The notes: generated from the sequence alone by a model not told the origin. A stretch of DNA of 32,000 bases from Promethearchaeia archaeon (GCA_046497275.1 JAWOFX010000106.1:93-32092), one strand, 5' to 3'; shown: positions 22,895 to 32,000, numbered from the stretch's first letter. Translations and numbers: made by a program.

Positions 22895-23074
22895 ATTGTT
22901 AAGTATTATTCTTTGTTATTTTTATAATCGATTCTAATCTTATTTTATTATAAAGTAAATAATCTTTTTATTTAATATAATTAAGTTCAAAAATAATTTT
23001 ATATATCTATTCTTGTTTATTTTTCTAGAATACGATTTAAATTAATAAAATTTTAGGATGTGCAGAGAAAAAGT

Positions 23075-24112
23075 ATGCCAAGATGCTATCATTGTGGGGA
23101 GAGATTCGACGATTTATATAAATGTGATAAATGTAATCAATATTATTGTTATTTACATAAAGATCCGATAAATCATGAATGTAATATAGTTAAAGAATCA
23201 TTAGAACTACAATATAGTTCAAATGAACCGAGTCATGATTATTTAAGATCTTATAATCAATCAAGCACAAATTACGCTGAAAATATATCATCCACTCATC
23301 AGCAACAACCAAATTATCAGTCAAGTTATTCTGAAAGCTCAGAAATACGTGGAAGTACCGATAGTACTTTTACATGGTATCGGAGAGAATCAAATATTCC
23401 TGATAATGCTTTTAGTCCTAATTCTGGCATTGAATTTAAGGGAATTCTTCTTCCCTATAAATCTGAGTTTTTACATTTGTTAATTGGATCAGTCTTAATT
23501 TATATTATCGGTTTGATAGGGTTTTATAATCCTCAGAATCAACAGCTACTTAATGATCTAGGATTTGGATGGATTATTTTTATGGTTGCAGGATTTTATA
23601 CAACTGCATTTCTTTTTCATGAATTTGGACATCGTCAAGTGGCGATCCATTTCGGACTCCAAACTAAATTCCGTTTATTAAAATTTGGGATGATTATCAC
23701 AGCATTTGGTTTATTAATGGGCCTTATTTCTATATCTTCTGGAGTTCAAGGTCTTCCAGGTTTAGCACTACCTGGGGCAGTAGTCGTTCTTGGATTGGAT
23801 AAAATAGATAAAAAAACCGGTTTATGTAAAGCAGCTGGACCTACAGTTAATTTAATATATGGTTCAATATTATTCGCTGTATCATTTCTAATACCCATTT
23901 TTCCGATTAATTTATTCATCGGAATGTCCGCATCCATAAATTTTATGCTTGGACTTTTTAATCTAATTCCGATTGGTATTTTAGACGGTGAAAATATCTT
24001 TAAATGGAATAAAAAAGTATATTTCTTCCTTGTAAGTTCTATGCTTATCCTAATTATAATTAATTATATTTGCATCTACTTACCTTCAGCCTCAAATCCC
24101 TATTATATTTGA
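23075..24112 (+). CDS. AN1-type zinc finger fused to M50 (site-2 protease-like) intramembrane metalloprotease
   Basis: CYHC-x-CDKC-x-YCYLH-x-HEC; HEFGH zinc motif; AAGPTVN; FNLIPIGILDG. Start set to ATG 23075 (MPRCYHC) rather than the track's 23060. Confidence 0.88.
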   Translation: MPRCYHCGERFDDLYKCDKCNQYYCYLHKDPINHECNIVKESLELQYSSNEPSHDYLRSYNQSSTNYAENISSTHQQQPNYQSSYSESSEIRGSTDSTFTWYRRESNIPDNAFSPNSGIEFKGILLPYKSEFLHLLIGSVLIYIIGLIGFYNPQNQQLLNDLGFGWIIFMVAGFYTTAFLFHEFGHRQVAIHFGLQTKFRLLKFGMIITAFGLLMGLISISSGVQGLPGLALPGAVVVLGLDKIDKKTGLCKAAGPTVNLIYGSILFAVSFLIPIFPINLFIGMSASINFMLGLFNLIPIGILDGENIFKWNKKVYFFLVSSMLILIIINYICIYLPSASNPYYI

Positions 24113-24274: not shown

Positions 24275-25192
24275 ATGCCATATTGCGAGTATTGTGGGGA
24301 AGAGATCGGATTTCTCCCCTTTAAATGCAAATACTGCGGCGGAATCTTTTGTAAAGAGCACAGATTACCAGAAAATCATGAATGTACATTTGAGCGAAAA
24401 CATAGACCGACTGTACCTACTTCGAGGAGAGGAGAAAAAAGGGAACAAGAGAGATACCGGTTTGTCTCAACAGAAGAGGATCCTAAAAAAGTTAAAAAAT
24501 TTATGAAAAAGCAAGATAAACAAAGAGATAGAGCAAGAAAGTTATTTGAAAGTGGTATTTCTGGATATGGAGGGACCTCGATAACAACTTATCTTATTAT
24601 AGCAATTTTTATAGCATCTATCATGGGATCCATTATGCCAGAATTTTTATGTTTGAGTTCTTCAAGTTTTTTCAAGTTATATATATGGACCTTCCTCACA
24701 GCACCTTTTGTTAATGTCTCGGAAGGTTTTTTTGGAATGTTCTTTTTACTTATTATCATATTATTATTCTATAATATTATCAGAATAATAGAATTGCGAT
24801 TTGGGAGCAAATTTTTAATCACATTATATCTATTCTCAACATTTATAAGTGCATTAATATACATATCAATCTGGGTACCAATAGAGTTTGCAAGCCCAAC
24901 AAGATTATCTCCGTGGCCAATTGGATTAGCATTTGGGGGATTATTGGGAATAATTTCATTCATGATATATTTTAGTTTTGATAAAGAGATGACATTCCTA
25001 CTCATGTTTATTCCAATAAGGATGAAAGGGAAGATTATTCTATTGTTGTTGATTTTATTCAGTTTAGTACCCGGGCTTTTATTCTATTTATTAACCTTGG
25101 AACCTATTTATCTTGCCATTTATATTCCTGATTTAGGGGGGATATTGGGTTCTTATATAATATTTCGGTATAAATTTCGATATATTAGATGA
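24275..25192 (+). CDS. AN1-type zinc finger fused to rhomboid-fold pseudoprotease
   Basis: CEYC[23 protein letters not shown]. Rhomboid landmarks [21 protein letters not shown] (for GxSG) and PDLGG (for AHxGG). Confidence 0.78.
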
Positions 25193-25305: not shown

Positions 25306-25971
25306 ATGCCTGAAAATAAAAATAATACGGTATCTAAGATAATCGAATTAAATGAAGATTTAATTAGAAATAATGATCTATTAGCGGCTGAAAATAAAAC
25401 AATGTTTGAAGAAAATCGGATAAAATCATTTGATATTGTCGGTGCAATAGGGGCAGGAAAGACTTCGTTATTAGAAGCGATTTCTCGAGATCTCCAGAAA
25501 GAATATCGTGTTTTGGTAATTAATGGAGATGTTGCGACTCGAGTGGATGCGGATCGCATTGAAAAAGTGGGAGCAAAAGCAATTCAAGTCAACACAGGGA
25601 GAGAGTGTGCACTAAATTCATATCATATTTCACAAGTAATTAAAAATATCAATTTAACTGATTATGATATTGTATTTATTGAAAATGTAGGAAATCTTAT
25701 TTGTCCGTCAGATTTTATTCTAGGAGTTTCTAAACGTGTGGTTGTTGTTTCAATTACAGAGGGACCTTGGGTGATTGAGAAACATCCATTATTATTCAAA
25801 ATGTCTGATATTGCTGTTATAAATAAAATCGATTTATTAGATGTTGTGGAGGTAAATATTGAGAAAATGGTAAATGATGCGAAAGAGATTAATCCAAGAT
25901 TAAAAGTCTTCACCACAAGTTGCAAGACTAGGGAAAATGTTGATAAGTTAAAAAAGGCATTAATAGAATAG
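25306..25971 (+). CDS. hypB: Hydrogenase nickel incorporation GTPase HypB
   Basis: GAIGAGKTSLLE, VINGD, DADRI, QVNTGRECAL, FIENVGNLICP, KHPLLF, INKIDL. Confidence 0.93.
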   Translation: MPENKNNTVSKIIELNEDLIRNNDLLAAENKTMFEENRIKSFDIVGAIGAGKTSLLEAISRDLQKEYRVLVINGDVATRVDADRIEKVGAKAIQVNTGRECALNSYHISQVIKNINLTDYDIVFIENVGNLICPSDFILGVSKRVVVVSITEGPWVIEKHPLLFKMSDIAVINKIDLLDVVEVNIEKMVNDAKEINPRLKVFTTSCKTRENVDKLKKALIE

Positions 25972-26016: not shown

Positions 26017-26430
26017 ATGTCAATGCGAGAATATAATACTGAACTACAAAAATTCATCGATAAAATTGTTAAGGTATATATAGATAATGAACGATTTTTT
26101 GTAGGAACTCTCAAGGGTGTTTCTGAAGAGGCAAATTTGATAATAAATTCTGCAAAAAATGAGAAAAATAAAGTTTTTCCCCAGATCTTAATTAATAATT
26201 CCTATTATCAGTATGTGACAGTTGAGGAAGAACCATTTCCTATGGAGGCATTAGCAGAGAGGATTTCGAAAATCTTCAGTAAAGGGCACGTTCAATATAT
26301 CGAAGAACAGAATATAATTTCAATTTTAGGTGGAAAAATCATAGTTGATGAAAACGGAGTTAGAGGTAGCGGCCCAAGCGCAGAAAGAGTTAAGAAAATA
26401 TTCGATCAATTTAAAATGGACTTAGAATAA
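26017..26430 (+). CDS. Augmented Sm-like archaeal protein (SmAP3-type, Sm fold plus Lsm C-terminal domain)
   Basis: Sm1-like KIVKVYID...FVGTLKGVSEEANLII, then C-domain FPMEALAERISKIF...GGKIIVDENGVRGSGPSAERVKKIF. Confidence 0.75.
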   Translation: MSMREYNTELQKFIDKIVKVYIDNERFFVGTLKGVSEEANLIINSAKNEKNKVFPQILINNSYYQYVTVEEEPFPMEALAERISKIFSKGHVQYIEEQNIISILGGKIIVDENGVRGSGPSAERVKKIFDQFKMDLE

Positions 26431-26462: not shown

Positions 26463-26966
26463 TTATTCTTTTTTGATGATTTCAAGGAGATTTTTTAAAT
26501 TTATATTTTCGATTACATTTTTCAATAAAGCTTTCCCTAAAGGAGTAATTTTAATTATTTCTAAATTATTGATGGTAAGTTTTCGAATGTAATCTTTTTT
26601 TAATAAAAATTCGACAGTATCCCAAATTTTCGAAAAAATGTCCCTAAGATCAGAAAATTTTAAATTCTCATCAACATCTTTAGTTAACGCTAATATAAAT
26701 GCAAGAGCACCATATTGGCTTGGGGTTATATCATCATCTTTTCCCTCTGTAGTTAATATATAAAATTTCTGTTCTAGAAATGTACTTGTTATTAATTCAA
26801 ATCCTACATCCATCAAATTTTTATAAGTTTGATTTATGACTTGTTCAAAATCTATTGATCCAGGACATAGATTAAGTAAATCTTCTTCGCGAATCATTTT
26901 TTGTTCATTAGTTAATATAAGTTTTGTTATTTTTTGAACAGTCTGATTAAATATTTTTTCTGACAT
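26463..26966 (-). CDS. Tandem winged-helix protein, KITE-like (ScpB/MksE/Nse1-Nse3 type)
   Basis: Two WH-sized halves, linker helix ITPSQYGALAFILAL, wing ending IKITPLGKALL; directly downstream of the SMC-like gene. Confidence 0.5.
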   Translation of the reverse strand: MSEKIFNQTVQKITKLILTNEQKMIREEDLLNLCPGSIDFEQVINQTYKNLMDVGFELITSTFLEQKFYILTTEGKDDDITPSQYGALAFILALTKDVDENLKFSDLRDIFSKIWDTVEFLLKKDYIRKLTINNLEIIKITPLGKALLKNVIENINLKNLLEIIKKE

Positions 26967-26979
26967 TTTAATTTAACTA

Positions 26980-26986
26980 ACCTCCT
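26980..26986 (-). promoter_or_regulatory. Shine-Dalgarno-like AGGAGGT overlapping the upstream stop
   Basis: Minus strand TAAGGAGGT; TAA is the SMC-like stop and the ATG at 26966 lies about 14 nt downstream. Confidence 0.55.
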
Positions 26987-28548
26987 TAAATTTTGATTAT
27001 ATTTAAATTTTCAATAGGGCGTTTCAACTCTAAATTTGAAATAAGAAATTGTACTTTTATATCTGAAAAAATCTTCTCATGATTTAAAATTGGCAATATT
27101 TTTCTGATTGTACGAAATAGAGAACCTCTTTTATTAAAATTTTCATGTAGGAATAAATTTGAGAAAATTATTTGTTTTATATCAAGACCAATATTAATTG
27201 AAAAAAAGAATACCATAACCACAAAAACTTTTTCAGGAGTGGTTAAATCTTCAAATTTTAAAGAATCCTTTTCGTTCCTTATGAATGCGGTTTGGATAAA
27301 AAATTTTTTTGAATCAAAATCTGTAATTAGAACTAATTTCATCTCCAAATTAATATTAATTAAAAATTTATTCGAAATATTCTCGAAATTTTTTAGGATA
27401 AGCTCAAAATCTCTCAATCTTTCTACAGAGTTCAATATCTTATTTTTATCAATATTGAAAGTTAAATTTTTTTTATTATCAATTAGTTTTTCATAGAACT
27501 GGGATAATTTTTGATCAAAAGGCTCTAAATCCTGCATATTCTCACCGCTAATATTATTATTCTTAATTGTGTTGATTTCTCTCTCGGTTTGATTTAATTC
27601 CTTTTTTATTTGTTCATAATCTCGAATATTATTAAATTCATTCATATCATATTGAGGAGTCGATTCTTTTATCTTATGCTCTAATAAATCTTTGATTTCA
27701 TCTTGTTGTTGCTTGATTTGATTTTCTTGTCGTTGAATTGTAGATTTTAAAGCACCAAAATCTTTTTTATATGATTTAAATTTCGGTTGTATTTCATATA
27801 ATTTATTTTTAGCTTCATTAAGTTTAGATTCAATTTGTCTTGATTTATAATGGATATCCTTTGCGTCACTTCTTAAGTTTTTAATTTTTTCTGCATTGGA
27901 GAGTTCAGAGAGATCTGGCAATTTTTTTTTATTTTCAGGATGTTCCATATCTCTAGTGATTCTATTTATTTCACTAAATTTTTCTTTTCTCTCTTTTTTT
28001 AATTTTTTAATCTTCTCATTTAAATTATTAATTCTATCATGAATCTGCTTTCTTTTGTTTTTTATTTCGAAGTAATCTTCTTTCAGATATTCTAGTTCTT
28101 TTCTATTTTTTTTAACTTGATTATTTAGATTTTTAAGTAAATTAGTTTTTGTAGACAATAGGTTTGATTTTTCTTTGATTTTGGAAAGTTTCAATTCATT
28201 AGATAAAGAATCTTTTCTCTTTAATGCTAAATTATATTGCATGTGATTGAATAAGGAATCGAGAATCTCGACATAATTATTGATTAAACAAACATTTTCA
28301 GCAGAAACTCTCCGATAAACATCTAAATACTCAATTATTTTATTTAATTTTTCGAATTTCTTTGTAGTAATATCTATTCTTTTAAAATATTTTAATAATT
28401 TCTTAAAAGGATTTAGATTTAAATCTTCCAATTCTTTGAATATAAAATTCTTTTTATATTTCCGCAGGTCTTTTTCCTCAAAATCTCCCACTATTAAGTT
28501 ATATTGTTCCTTTAGTGGAATCTTTTTATTTCCTATTGATATCTCCAT
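26986..28548 (-). CDS. SMC/Rad50-like coiled-coil protein with degenerate ATPase head
   Basis: N-terminal KIPLKEQYNLIVGDFEEK (Walker A position), about 260 aa of coiled coil, C-terminal FEDLTTPEKVFVVMVFFFSI...QIIFSN...VQFLISN (signature, Walker B and H-loop positions). Confidence 0.7.
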   Translation of the reverse strand: MEISIGNKKIPLKEQYNLIVGDFEEKDLRKYKKNFIFKELEDLNLNPFKKLLKYFKRIDITTKKFEKLNKIIEYLDVYRRVSAENVCLINNYVEILDSLFNHMQYNLALKRKDSLSNELKLSKIKEKSNLLSTKTNLLKNLNNQVKKNRKELEYLKEDYFEIKNKRKQIHDRINNLNEKIKKLKKERKEKFSEINRITRDMEHPENKKKLPDLSELSNAEKIKNLRSDAKDIHYKSRQIESKLNEAKNKLYEIQPKFKSYKKDFGALKSTIQRQENQIKQQQDEIKDLLEHKIKESTPQYDMNEFNNIRDYEQIKKELNQTEREINTIKNNNISGENMQDLEPFDQKLSQFYEKLIDNKKNLTFNIDKNKILNSVERLRDFELILKNFENISNKFLININLEMKLVLITDFDSKKFFIQTAFIRNEKDSLKFEDLTTPEKVFVVMVFFFSINIGLDIKQIIFSNLFLHENFNKRGSLFRTIRKILPILNHEKIFSDIKVQFLISNLELKRPIENLNIIKI

Positions 28549-28563
28549 AATGTGTCACTAATT

Positions 28564-29610
28564 TTATTGGTCTTTTGATTTGTTATCTTTAAATTTTTTC
28601 AGAAATTCTTTATATTCTTCCGTCTTCTTCTTTTTTCTATCTCTTATAATATTTTTAGGATCTAATGAATCATCTTTTTGGATTAAATATTTATCTTCAA
28701 AAGAATTTTCGAATTTAGATTTGAACTTTTTAATTTTCTGCTCAACATCTTCCCCTATTTCTTTCTTTATTTCAGGTTTTTGAGCTATTTCTGAAAGATT
28801 CTCTCTTTTTTGTTTACGACGTCTGCGCTCAAATTCCTTATCTGAATATTTTAAATATTCCTTATATAATTTATTCTGTTCCTCTTGTTTTCTTTTTAAA
28901 TCTTCTAACATACCTTTTTCTTTAGCTTTTTGGATAGATTCAGTCTTTTCTTTTAATTTTTTTTTAATTCGTTCTTCTTCAAGCTCTCTAATAAAACTAT
29001 CAAAAGTTAATTGAGGATTCTCTCGAAATGCTTCTTTAAACTCCTCTAAAACAGATTTATCGATATAATCGGGAATTTTGATAAGTTCTTTTTCTAATTT
29101 ATTATCGATTATTTTGTTATAAAAAATATTAATATCGTCTAAAATAGAGATGAATAGGGAATTATCCTCAAGATAATCAGTCATTTCTAACCATTGATCT
29201 AGTTTAATGGATGAAATATAAGAAGCTTTTTTAAGAATCTTTGCGGTATCTTTATTTTCAATTAATGAGAGCCCTATTTTTCTAATATGTGATGGATTGA
29301 CTTCTAATTGCTTTAAACGATTTATATGGATTAGTTTATATTTTTCAATCAAAATGTCTTGAAATTCAATAAATGACTCGAGATTGTTTTGATTTATTTC
29401 GATTAAAATATCATTAATTAATTCTATTTGTTTTTTGAGACTCCTTAATTGGGGCTTAGCGTCCTTATGGGCGGATTCCTCAAGATATCGCTCTTTTAAT
29501 TGAATAAACTCATTATATTTTGATTCGAGAACATTTAATTTTCCCTCGAGGATATTTAATGGATTAAAAAAACTTTTTATTTGCTGCAGATTAAATGGTT
29601 TATTCTCCAA
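28564..29610 (-). CDS. Helical hypothetical protein with highly charged C-terminal coiled coil
   Basis: 348-aa ORF with TTG start, tight spacing (15 and 31 nt) in the minus-strand cluster, K/E/R-rich C-terminal third. Confidence 0.8.
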   Translation of the reverse strand: MENKPFNLQQIKSFFNPLNILEGKLNVLESKYNEFIQLKERYLEESAHKDAKPQLRSLKKQIELINDILIEINQNNLESFIEFQDILIEKYKLIHINRLKQLEVNPSHIRKIGLSLIENKDTAKILKKASYISSIKLDQWLEMTDYLEDNSLFISILDDINIFYNKIIDNKLEKELIKIPDYIDKSVLEEFKEAFRENPQLTFDSFIRELEEERIKKKLKEKTESIQKAKEKGMLEDLKRKQEEQNKLYKEYLKYSDKEFERRRRKQKRENLSEIAQKPEIKKEIGEDVEQKIKKFKSKFENSFEDKYLIQKDDSLDPKNIIRDRKKKKTEEYKEFLKKFKDNKSKDQ

Positions 29611-29641
29611 TCAAATCAGCTCTATTTTTTTTGATTAATAT

Positions 29642-30724
29642 TTATATTTCAGGAGGTCCTGAAGTAGGAGGTCTACTTGCTCTATATTTTTCTTTATTTC
29701 CCGAATTTCGTTTGGAATGACTAAGGAGATCTTGCCGTTCTACATGAACAGCAGTTCCCCCTACTAATTTTAATGAGTTATAAAAAATATCATAGGTCAA
29801 TACTCCCGTTTGAATAACCTTAAAAAGTGCTACTCTAGTCCCTCGTTCAATATCAGACCCTGAATATCCAACTGTTAATTTTAGAAAGGCACCTATTTCT
29901 AAATCTTTCTCAACTTCATTCCATAATAGATTATCTTCAAATTCAGATACTTTTCTTCCTAATTTGGTTTCTAAATTTTTATGAATTTTCTTTATAGCCT
30001 TATATTCTTGATCAAGCTTTTTGTATATTGTGTCATCAATTCCAATGTTGGCATTTGAAATTTTATTAAGATAAGATTCAATAATTTCTTTCCTTAATTC
30101 ATAATTTGGAAAATCAAATTTAAGATGAAAGGTAAATCTTCTCCAAATTGCAGAATCTAATTGATGTTGATGATTAGTTGCTCCAAAAATGGCCAATGGA
30201 ATACCCTCATAATTTACCTTATCAATAACTTGCAAAAAAGAGATCACTGCTCGTTTTATCTCTCCTACTTCATGAATATTTGATCTCTCAGAACCTATTG
30301 CATCAATCTCATCAAAGAATAGGATGAAAGCATCGTTTTCCCTCGCGATGTCGGCTGCTAATTCCACCACATTTCTTATATTTTTTATTGTATCACCTAA
30401 TAAAGGGGAAACTAGTCTATCTGATTCCACAACGCACATTGGAATTTCATATGTTTTAGAGTAAGCACGTGTTAGGGAGGTTTTTCCTGTTCCTGGTGGA
30501 CCATATAAAAGTACAGTTAAACTTGGTGATAATTTGGTTTTTTTAAGTTGTTCTGAAATATCTTTATACTTTTTAAGTCCCTTAAAAAAATCGTCTAAAC
30601 GTTCCTTTTTAGACTCATTTCCTTTAATATCATCAATATCCTCCTTGATATCTTCTGGTAAATAAACAGCTCCATATTTTCCCAATCGTTCTTTGATTTC
30701 TTCATTGCTATATGTAATTTCAAT
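29642..30724 (-). CDS. Single-module classical-clade AAA ATPase
   Basis: Walker A LLYGPPGTGKT, Walker B FILFFDEIDAIG, SRH ATNHQHQLDSAIWRRF. The frame is open upstream of the track's TTG (30685) to ATT at 30724. Confidence 0.92.
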   Translation of the reverse strand: MEITYSNEEIKERLGKYGAVYLPEDIKEDIDDIKGNESKKERLDDFFKGLKKYKDISEQLKKTKLSPSLTVLLYGPPGTGKTSLTRAYSKTYEIPMCVVESDRLVSPLLGDTIKNIRNVVELAADIARENDAFILFFDEIDAIGSERSNIHEVGEIKRAVISFLQVIDKVNYEGIPLAIFGATNHQHQLDSAIWRRFTFHLKFDFPNYELRKEIIESYLNKISNANIGIDDTIYKKLDQEYKAIKKIHKNLETKLGRKVSEFEDNLLWNEVEKDLEIGAFLKLTVGYSGSDIERGTRVALFKVIQTGVLTYDIFYNSLKLVGGTAVHVERQDLLSHSKRNSGNKEKYRASRPPTSGPPEI

Positions 30725-30742: not shown

Positions 30743-32000
30743 TTATTTATTATTTCTTTCCTTTTCAATTTTCTCACAATATATTCCTACACTTTCAATC
30801 AAGCTTTCTAAATTATCAATCTGAGCTCCAATAAAATTAAAAATTTCTTTCCTATACTGTGGAGAATCTCGAATTTTTGTTTTATCCAAACCAAGATAAT
30901 TTGGAAAACAGATTAATTTCATTAAATATGGTAAAACTTTTTCATTTGTTTGAAGATCATTGAATATTGAATAAAAGATATTCTCATCAGTGAGCTTCCA
31001 TTTCAAAATACCCATATAGACTAAAAAAGCAAAATTCATAGCAATCCAGTTTATTAATTCTTTAGATAAGAAGCCTCTTCTCCTTGACGCAAATGCTAAG
31101 TAAAAGAGTATTAATGTCTCATTGCTAAATTGAGGTATATATCGAACCGTTCCATCTGATTGTTTAGTTTTTCTCAGAAAATTGTTTTCTAAAAAAAGAT
31201 CAATAGTCCTTTCTTGAGGAGCTAAAAAAATACCATCTATGACTCTAAGTCCTATTCTTTCTGCGATGTTATTGATAGCTTCCTCTTCTGCATTGGCAAT
31301 GGAGTCAATATATGGTAAAAACACATCTTTTATCAATACCATGGGTATTTCTTGATCTTTTCGTTCCGGAAAATTCCCATAATTCGGATCTAAATTAAAA
31401 AATGATGTGATGTTATTAATTAATTGATAAACCTTAGGAGAAATACCAGGAATTGTAAAGAAATCTGGATGTTCTAAGTCTTCCCTATAATAAGTGTGTA
31501 CTCTTAATAGATGTCTTTGAGATTCATAGAAATCAGGTGCATGTTCCAGTAACCGCTCATAGATGATTTTTATACTTGATCCCCTCGGAAATAAGATCCC
31601 TTCAATATATTTTACTAATCGATATAAGTAAGTATTATCTAAATTTCTTTCATCCGGATTAGTAATATTCCTCAGGATTGTTAAAGCTTGAACTGATTCT
31701 TGAAGAAAATCAATAATATAATCTTTGATATCAATTAAAGGGATCCGATCTCTATATTTGGTGATAAAATCTTTCATAATTTCATATACATTTGAACGAT
31801 ACATTGCAGAGAATTCCGTTAAGGCACGCACTTTCCGAACATTTCTTTTTTCCTCTTCTTGTCGTATTTTATCTAATATTTCTGTATCATAAAGGAGGTC
31901 TGGATCAAGATTCTCAATAATTCTCCTAGTTTCTCGTAATATTGGCTTCATATGACTAATGAAAGTCTGATAACGGGGCAAAATATCTGTCCATTTTTCT
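30743..32000 (-). CDS. Conserved-looking hypothetical protein, 5'-partial (runs off the window edge)
   Basis: The frame stays open upstream of the track's TTG 31981 (E-K-W-T-D-I-L-P-R-Y) to the window end; 412+ aa, mostly helical. Confidence 0.85.
   Translation of the reverse strand, partial: EKWTDILPRYQTFISHMKPILRETRRIIENLDPDLLYDTEILDKIRQEEEKRNVRKVRALTEFSAMYRSNVYEIMKDFITKYRDRIPLIDIKDYIIDFLQESVQALTILRNITNPDERNLDNTYLYRLVKYIEGILFPRGSSIKIIYERLLEHAPDFYESQRHLLRVHTYYREDLEHPDFFTIPGISPKVYQLINNITSFFNLDPNYGNFPERKDQEIPMVLIKDVFLPYIDSIANAEEEAINNIAERIGLRVIDGIFLAPQERTIDLFLENNFLRKTKQSDGTVRYIPQFSNETLILFYLAFASRRRGFLSKELINWIAMNFAFLVYMGILKWKLTDENIFYSIFNDLQTNEKVLPYLMKLICFPNYLGLDKTKIRDSPQYRKEIFNFIGAQIDNLESLIESVGIYCEKIEKERNNK

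Follow-up and report, generated by a model that had tools for sequence, protein, structure and literature searches.

SMC-kleisin-kite complexes (Smc-ScpAB, MukBEF, JetABC, and Smc5/6 with Nse1/Nse3/Nse4) are the described systems to which the locus reported here is most readily compared. A canonical SMC protein has an arm of roughly 330 residues and a head of roughly 330 residues, and the N-terminal domains of kleisins bind the SMC necks. To our knowledge, the described proteins of the SMC superfamily all work via ATP-driven head engagement, and we know of the kite fold otherwise only as a kleisin-bound subunit of SMC complexes. Rad50/SbcC proteins carry a CxxC zinc hook and have Mre11/SbcD as their partner, and Lamassu is a patchily distributed defence system with an effector subunit. 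For archaea, 'SMC5/6-related' operons have been described (bioRxiv 10.1101/2024.01.07.573240). The ASRPs (coalescin ClsN, Sph1/Sph2) contain Walker A, Walker B and, mostly, a zinc hook, candidates devoid of these motifs having been discarded (PMC9389158). A preprint on the evolution of Asgard SMC proteins covers the kites that were found by HMM searches.

We analyzed a stretch of 32,000 nt of Asgard archaeal DNA (the window), in which an earlier note had pointed out a gene for a shortened, catalytically dead SMC-like protein of 520 residues. The analysis led us to regard this protein as probably an ATPase-less and hinge-less 'mini-SMC' of the SMC/Rad50 superfamily, which would form the structural arm of a kleisin-like/kite complex and would be served by an AAA ATPase in trans. 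Full-text literature searches yielded no description of the mini-SMC family or of its operon.

The locus resembles the SMC-kleisin-kite complexes in the head formed by two termini, the antiparallel coiled coil, the adjacent tandem winged-helix kite, the operon layout, and the neighbouring protein whose N-terminal helices are predicted to lie on the neck. Unlike these complexes, it has an SMC-like subunit without P-loop, Walker B, signature, H-loop and hinge, with an arm of only ~140 residues and a head of ~180 residues; winged-helix ends cannot be recognised in its kleisin-like partner, and the operon encodes, in addition, an intact AAA ATPase as well as four orphan proteins. The Pfam models of SMC, ScpA and ScpB do not detect any of the operon subunits. 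Short Rad50/SbcC-like ATPases of the AAA_23 type (570–790 aa, from archaea and phages) share the short coiled coil and the small head, but they differ from mini-SMC in that the latter is missed by the AAA_23, SMC_N and AAA_21 models and has no P-loop. It also differs from Rad50/SbcC in lacking the CxxC hook, and its locus lacks Mre11/SbcD. [quoted passage not shown] Finally, LmuB of Lamassu is likewise SMC-like, with short arms and a similar size, and a Lamassu chain (9hqx_B) matches the fold with an E-value of 3.7e-5, whereas mini-SMC has no PADLOC Lamassu match, lies in a core genomic context and has a kite partner.

The mini-SMC gene and its operon

The open reading frame proved to be real (P0001), and each of the strings quoted for it in the earlier note was located in its translation where that note had placed it: NLIVGDFEEKD at aa 17–27, HPENKKKLPDLSE at aa 203–215, LTTPEK at aa 435–440, QIIFSN at aa 459–464, and VQFLISN at aa 499–505. 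The protein contains one Cys. The gene belongs to a compact series of co-oriented genes, which encode proteins of 412 aa, the AAA ATPase, and proteins of 348, 520 (mini-SMC) and 167 aa, with gaps of 57, 31, 15, and 19 nt (Table 1). The AAA ATPase (PF00004, E 4.3e-25) is the sole recognisable NTPase among the operon products. For the orphan helical protein, a feature search of the ESM-Atlas with a 435-aa orthologue gave no usable match.

Comparison of three longer contigs showed that the operon consists of eight genes, which at the locus L001 encode, in order, proteins of 366 aa, 322 aa (with Zn ribbons), 379 aa and 432 aa, the AAA ATPase, a protein of 346 aa, mini-SMC, and a protein of 167 aa. 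The flanks are constant in these contigs: one is formed by Elf1, the other by Lsm and HypB. The contig of the present genome ends within the operon, and the 379-aa gene was found at the end of another contig (C131); the three upstream operon genes are missing from the window because of an assembly gap. Mini-SMC is one subunit of a kleisin-like/kite/AAA operon and not a lone scaffold. As a separate observation, RNA-labelled salt-lake runs contained 20–51% of the words sampled from a 4.2-kb stretch, which is not evidence of transcription.

Table 1. Positions of the operon genes in the 32,000-nt window and of the segments and motifs of the 520-aa protein.
Feature	Coordinates (nt)	Strand	Remarks
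Tandem winged-helix (kite-fold) gene, 167 aa	26463..26966	-	19 nt downstream of the mini-SMC gene
Mini-SMC gene, 520 aa	26986..28548	-
C-terminal head half (aa 400-520)	26989..27351	-	alpha/beta domain in the model; best-conserved part
FLISNL (aa 501-506)	27031..27048	-	end of the last core strand, site of the SMC H-loop His; no His
NKRGSxxR motif (aa 472-479)	27112..27135	-	where the helix following the D-loop begins; invariant: N472, G475, S476 and R479
IIFSN (aa 460-464)	27157..27171	-	Walker B position; FSN invariant, no Asp-Glu
LTTPEK (aa 435-440)	27229..27246	-	position of the ABC signature (LSGGE/Q); invariant
Descending arm (aa 218-399)	27352..27897	-	helix interrupted near aa 295-310, 332-341 and 358-367
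Head-proximal coiled coil, 'neck' (aa 71-111 and 339-383)	27400..28338	-	where the 348-aa protein is predicted to dock
Apex loop (aa 203-217)	27898..27942	-	disordered, of variable length among relatives; pLDDT <50 at aa 206-214
Ascending coiled-coil helix (aa 60-202)	27943..28371	-	~21 nm, estimated at 1.5 Å per residue
N-terminal head half (aa 1-60)	28369..28548	-	three strands, helix, strand, helix in the model
Walker A position (aa 17-27)	28468..28500	-	P-loop deleted; three loop residues between strand 16-21 and helix 25-39
Charged helical protein gene, 348 aa, kleisin-like candidate	28564..29610	-	N-terminal hairpin aa 2-97 = nt 29320-29607
AAA ATPase gene, classical-type, 347 aa	29642..30685	-	both Walker motifs intact (A, GPPGTGKT; B, FFDEIDA)
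Orphan helical protein gene, 412 aa listed	30743..32000, listed ORF 30743-31981	-	5' end at contig end; orthologues 415-435 aa

Predicted fold of the 520-aa protein

Whether the two ends of the protein assemble into an ABC-type head had been set beforehand as the test by which the SMC assignment could be refuted. The test was run with AlphaFold2 and an alignment as input, and in the resulting model the N- and C-termini do join into such a head. The mean pLDDT is 85, with values of 88–91 for aa 1–60 and 83–95 for aa 400–520. In the model, both termini contribute to a small head, and the antiparallel coiled coil that carries this head has a disordered tip. The N-terminal half of this head is much shorter than the N-lobe of SMC proteins, which has ~160 aa.

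The claim that the protein has neither a hinge-sized domain nor a CxxC zinc hook was borne out by the model and the alignment: the apex is a 15-residue loop of low confidence, and CxxC is absent from the 520-aa protein and from 36 aligned relatives. The alignment columns of the apex loop are gapped and unconserved. Directly after the apex, on the descending arm, there is a conserved motif, LSNAEKI, in which A229 is invariant.

Searches with Foldseek, VIA-align and the ESM-Atlas were run with the whole-chain model, head and coiled coil together. Among the 50 matches listed by Foldseek in the PDB, 49 were chains of the SMC superfamily, the exception (9a6c_A) being an integrative model that we could not place. 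The E-values reached 8.6e-8 for Rad50 (7zr1_C) and 1.4e-7 for the Pyrococcus Smc head (5xei), to be read with the reservation that Foldseek and VIA-align scores are raised by the long coiled coil and that many unrelated coiled-coil chains reach a similar Z. Other matches listed were Smc5/6, JetABC, Lamassu, MukB, cohesin, and condensin. The Foldseek and VIA-align matches to the heads of Smc, Rad50 and Smc5/6 cover model residues 1–520, and Foldseek also matched PDB entries that contain only a head, namely 4i99 (rmsd 4.0–4.7 Å over 136–137 alignment columns) and 1xew_Y (TMt 0.49).

The closest shapes in the ESM-Atlas were clusters of AAA_23/SMC_N proteins of 570–790 aa from archaea and phages, with a TM-score by query of 0.33–0.42 and 209–281 residues aligned over aa 1–520. 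For the C-terminal 129 aa, the language-model features led to SbcC_Walker_B, AAA_21 and SMC_N fragments, which we regard as a lead only.

Alignment of the head halves with SMC profiles

Scans of the whole 520-aa protein against Pfam, NCBIfam and PADLOC gave coiled-coil noise only and no SMC, Rad50 or ABC family; the sole PADLOC match for mini-SMC, obtained with the L001 orthologue, was JetC with an E-value of 0.054 over the coiled coil. When the head halves were scanned against Pfam, there was no match to the SMC superfamily at E-values up to 10, and the C-terminal half gave scattered chance matches. Likewise, phmmer and hmmsearch did not find an SMC among the PDB sequences, be it with the protein, the full alignment, or the alignment of the C-terminal head. 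Matches of the C-terminal head profile to TAL effectors were dismissed as chance, being sums of many sub-threshold repeat matches.

Because the HMMER-type searches found nothing, profile alignments of the two head halves were built and compared by hhalign with reference profiles of the N- and C-terminal heads of 22 Asgard SMC and SMC5/6-like genes. The C-terminal halves aligned with a score of 27.5 (P 0.0015), the best of 30 column-shuffled profiles reaching 17.7 and the reversed profile 11.9. The score of the N-terminal halves was 23.3 (P 0.0034), as against 14.8 for the best of 30 column-shuffled profiles and 9.9 for the reversed one. The hhalign probabilities were low, 10–17%. LTTPEK fell on SGGEK, and the FS of IIFSN came to lie under the Asp-Glu of Walker B; N472 aligned, with low confidence, to the conserved Asn that follows the SMC D-loop. 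At the N-terminus, the family consensus DRFTLIxGkFk was placed on GFTAIVGPNGSGKSN of SMC with six P-loop residues deleted. Alignment with the SMC5/6-like subset again placed LTTPEK on SGGE, and the subsets of canonical SMC and SMC5/6-like genes gave lower scores and did not discriminate between the subfamilies.

Of the motif positions proposed in the earlier note, those of Walker A, the signature and Walker B were thus recovered independently by hhalign, and that of the H-loop follows from the order of secondary structure in the model, hhalign being unreliable in the region of FLISNL. Taken with the model and the Foldseek E-values down to 8.6e-8, the hhalign scores above those of shuffled controls indicate that the SMC-head layout goes beyond a chance likeness.

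Predicted partners of mini-SMC

The 167-aa protein models as a kite of the Nse1/Nse3/ScpB-like kind. No significant match was obtained when Pfam and the PDB were searched with a profile of the kite alignment, and it is at the level of the predicted fold that we identify this protein as a kite-fold subunit.

The 348-aa protein received no family or fold assignment in Pfam, PADLOC and NCBIfam scans and in a feature search of the ESM-Atlas. Complex prediction with the 520-aa and 348-aa proteins gave an ipSAE of 0.65 in three runs, the best of three controls giving 0.00. The runs agreed in at least 86% of the contacts, and the pLDDT of the 348-aa partner was at least 60. In a calibration of the tool, 58 of 80 solved complexes and two of 110 mismatched pairs attained the ipSAE mark, counts that apply only roughly here because our own alignments were used as input. 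The predicted interface comprises residues 71–111, 339–383 and 406–419 of the 520-aa protein and residues 2–97 of the 348-aa protein, and the contact is with the neck only and not with the cap. Since the predictor may have succeeded by remembering SMC-kleisin structures, the result demonstrates likeness and not binding. The model supports the view that the N-terminal hairpin of the 348-aa protein may bind the mini-SMC neck in the fashion of a kleisin.

The failure of all sequence-only searches might also mean that the 520-aa protein is no SMC homologue, being instead a structural or cytoskeletal coiled-coil protein with a cap that is head-like by convergence or predictor bias. The Pfam noise does consist of coiled-coil families, and the VIA-align lists are full of coiled-coil chains. 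Several findings speak against it: each half of the head aligned to SMC in the proper register, with a score exceeding those of the shuffled controls; entries consisting of heads alone were matched; the adjacent gene encodes a predicted kite; and for the product of the other adjoining gene the complex prediction gives an interface of the neck type. We consider this explanation unlikely.

Distribution of the family

In a word-indexed search, ~160 relatives with lengths of about 410–546 aa came up. An exhaustive search reduced to 75 representatives at 50% identity, all of them unnamed or called 'coiled-coil protein'. Longer relatives, of 911–2600 aa, were not found, which is weak evidence. The names that depositors have given to the sources of the homologues vary (Loki-, Hod-, Hermod-, Thor-, and Promethearchaeota).

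We then sampled 200 further genomes of the phylum, of which 40 were from the window's own family and three from its sister family. The profile of the C-terminal head matched in 39 of the 40 own-family genomes, at a single locus in each with one exception, and in none of the 160 genomes outside the family at E-values up to 1e-5. The kite gene and the 377-aa operon gene were present in the same 39 genomes and in two of the three from the sister family, and in none of the 157 other genomes of the phylum. The 348-aa protein was found in 36 of the 40 further family genomes, and its gene adjoins that of mini-SMC wherever coordinates exist. Overall, the operon was not found in the 158 other genomes of the phylum that were sampled.

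The sister-family locus keeps the whole operon. The 377-aa protein is 51–56% identical between the two families; the sister-family mini-SMC is much more diverged (P0180, 25% identity to the 520-aa protein) and is likewise without a P-loop, having IIQGENSKK, LPTEEK and YSDEN at the motif positions. In this sample, the mini-SMC family is confined to one order-level lineage and is not spread across the Asgard archaea. The genome from which the window comes has, besides mini-SMC, a canonical operon of SMC, ScpA and ScpB and another full-length SMC, and mini-SMC is therefore an extra module and no replacement.

These data also bear on the possibility that the operon is a defence against viruses or plasmids, either SMC-like (Lamassu, Wadjet) or an ATPase system like IetAS. 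The best named match of the AAA ATPase is indeed the anti-phage ATPase IetA/IteA (top match of the L001 orthologue in both PADLOC and NCBIfam, 1.9e-58), and chains of Lamassu and JetABC occur among the fold matches. However, the match to IteA has 176 bits, far short of the cut-off of 510, the PADLOC models recognised no non-AAA subunit of the L001 orthologue, and neither a nuclease nor a protease effector was recognised. Defence islands are patchy and mobile, whereas this operon occurs as a single copy almost throughout the family and at a constant chromosomal site, next to the Elf1, Lsm and HypB genes. With this core-like pattern, and with PADLOC matches confined to the AAA domain, a defence role is unlikely.

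Conservation of the degenerate head

The earlier note had asked whether the degenerate residues are conserved, and this was clearly the case, LTTPEK and FSN being invariant in 36 aligned relatives. The other invariant residues of this alignment are G21, N472, G475, S476, R479, S504 and L506. The mean column identity is 60% for the C-terminal head half vs 35% for the N-terminal half. None of the 36 relatives contains G-x4-GK[ST] or the Asp-Glu of Walker B.

Since the residues of the P-loop, signature, Walker B and H-loop have been lost, canonical binding or hydrolysis of ATP is unlikely, and, judging from the sequences, mini-SMC is most likely incapable of both. The replacement residues are themselves invariant, which suggests that the head is still selected, probably as an interaction surface. 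That mini-SMC could still be an ATPase or bind another nucleotide through non-canonical residues, for example at a phosphate site made up of the NKRGS..R helix start and LTTPEK, is highly improbable: these two motifs are invariant and lie on the former active-site face of the head model, and a helix N-terminus with Gly-Ser, Lys and Arg would be a plausible anion site, but none of the 36 members has a P-loop, three loop residues stand in place of the eight-residue P-loop of SMC, the acidic pair of Walker B is missing, and the sister family differs at the very positions concerned.

Discussion

The reading of mini-SMC as the structural arm of a kleisin-like/kite complex with an AAA ATPase in trans implies the following arrangement. 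The termini of mini-SMC would form a reduced ABC-type head, from which an antiparallel coiled coil of ~140 residues would extend to a flexible loop at the apex. The N-terminal helical hairpin of the 348-aa protein would be laid on the head-proximal coiled coil as the N-domains of kleisins are on the SMC neck, and mini-SMC, the kleisin-like protein and the kite would most likely make up a passive clamp or tether together. The likely target of such a clamp would be DNA or nucleoprotein. The AAA ATPase would assemble, open or recycle the clamp in trans, in place of the mini-SMC heads. As a tentative extension of this arrangement, which we regard as possible though rather doubtful, the operon would encode an SMC-type DNA clamp or tether with its motor handed over, the AAA unfoldase of the operon loading, opening or recycling it.

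In mini-SMC, the head, the arm, the kite and neck-binding partners have been kept while every ATP motif has been lost under strong purifying selection. Because the head and the partners are kept and the ATP motifs lost, the family offers a test of which SMC functions need the ATPase. The constant association with an AAA ATPase suggests that energy is supplied in a different way. If true, the handing over of the motor would mean that an SMC-like complex is run in a manner known from no organism, and this in archaea close to the eukaryotic ancestor. Taken together, the operon products have the look of a machine not described before, in archaea closely related to eukaryotes.

Operon layout and flanking genes

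The operon encoding the mini-SMC, the 520-aa SMC/Rad50-like protein devoid of ATPase motifs, is broken by an assembly gap in its own genome. The gap falls between the 379-aa gene and a 412-aa gene, with window position 32000 (the end of contig C102) on one side and the end of contig C131 on the other. The absence of the 322-aa second gene from the window is due to this contig break; the gene was located in L001, a locus of a related genome, and its product carries two CxxC...CxxC zinc-ribbon segments.

Two genes, encoding an Lsm protein and a HypB/UreG-type GTPase, converge on the operon, and their position was conserved across every related locus examined. Two genes for membrane proteins with an N-terminal Cys/His zinc-finger segment also lie on the forward strand. 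The positional counterparts of these membrane proteins in the related loci showed zf-AN1 and a faint Peptidase_M50 match.

Features of the window and of related loci (L-numbers).
Feature	Location	Strand	Remark
Membrane protein, zinc finger	window 23060-24112	+
Membrane protein, zinc finger	window 24275-25192	+
HypB/UreG-type GTPase	window 25306-25971	+	convergent to operon
Lsm protein with Lsm_C extension	window 26017-26430	+	convergent to operon
Operon gene 2, 322 aa	L001:2305-3273
Mini-SMC locus, sister family	L136:10369-11988		compared with window 26986-28548

Shared 31-mers in salt-lake data

Between 20 and 51% of the 31-mers sampled from window 26463-30685 were present in salt-lake runs labelled as metatranscriptomes (three studies), which gives only a hint that the operon of a close relative is expressed in situ.

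Canonical SMC and divergence of the mini-SMC

In the family to which the window belongs, the open frame of the separate canonical SMC spans about 1,486-1,489 aa (contig C69 of the own genome, L005/L006; L017, L018, L021, and L027); our ORF calls were 1,481 aa for the own genome and 1,473 aa for L045. The canonical SMC of the phylum's other families measures about 1,155-1,211 aa, and the greater length therefore points to an insertion of roughly 290 aa in the mini-SMC-bearing lineage.

A sister-type relative of the mini-SMC (P0180) showed 25% identity to the mini-SMC of the window, as against 51-56% for the co-operonic 377-aa protein between the two sister families. Judged by these identities, the mini-SMC is far more diverged between the two sister families than the 377-aa subunit, and the arm seems to have evolved several times faster than the remainder of the machine.
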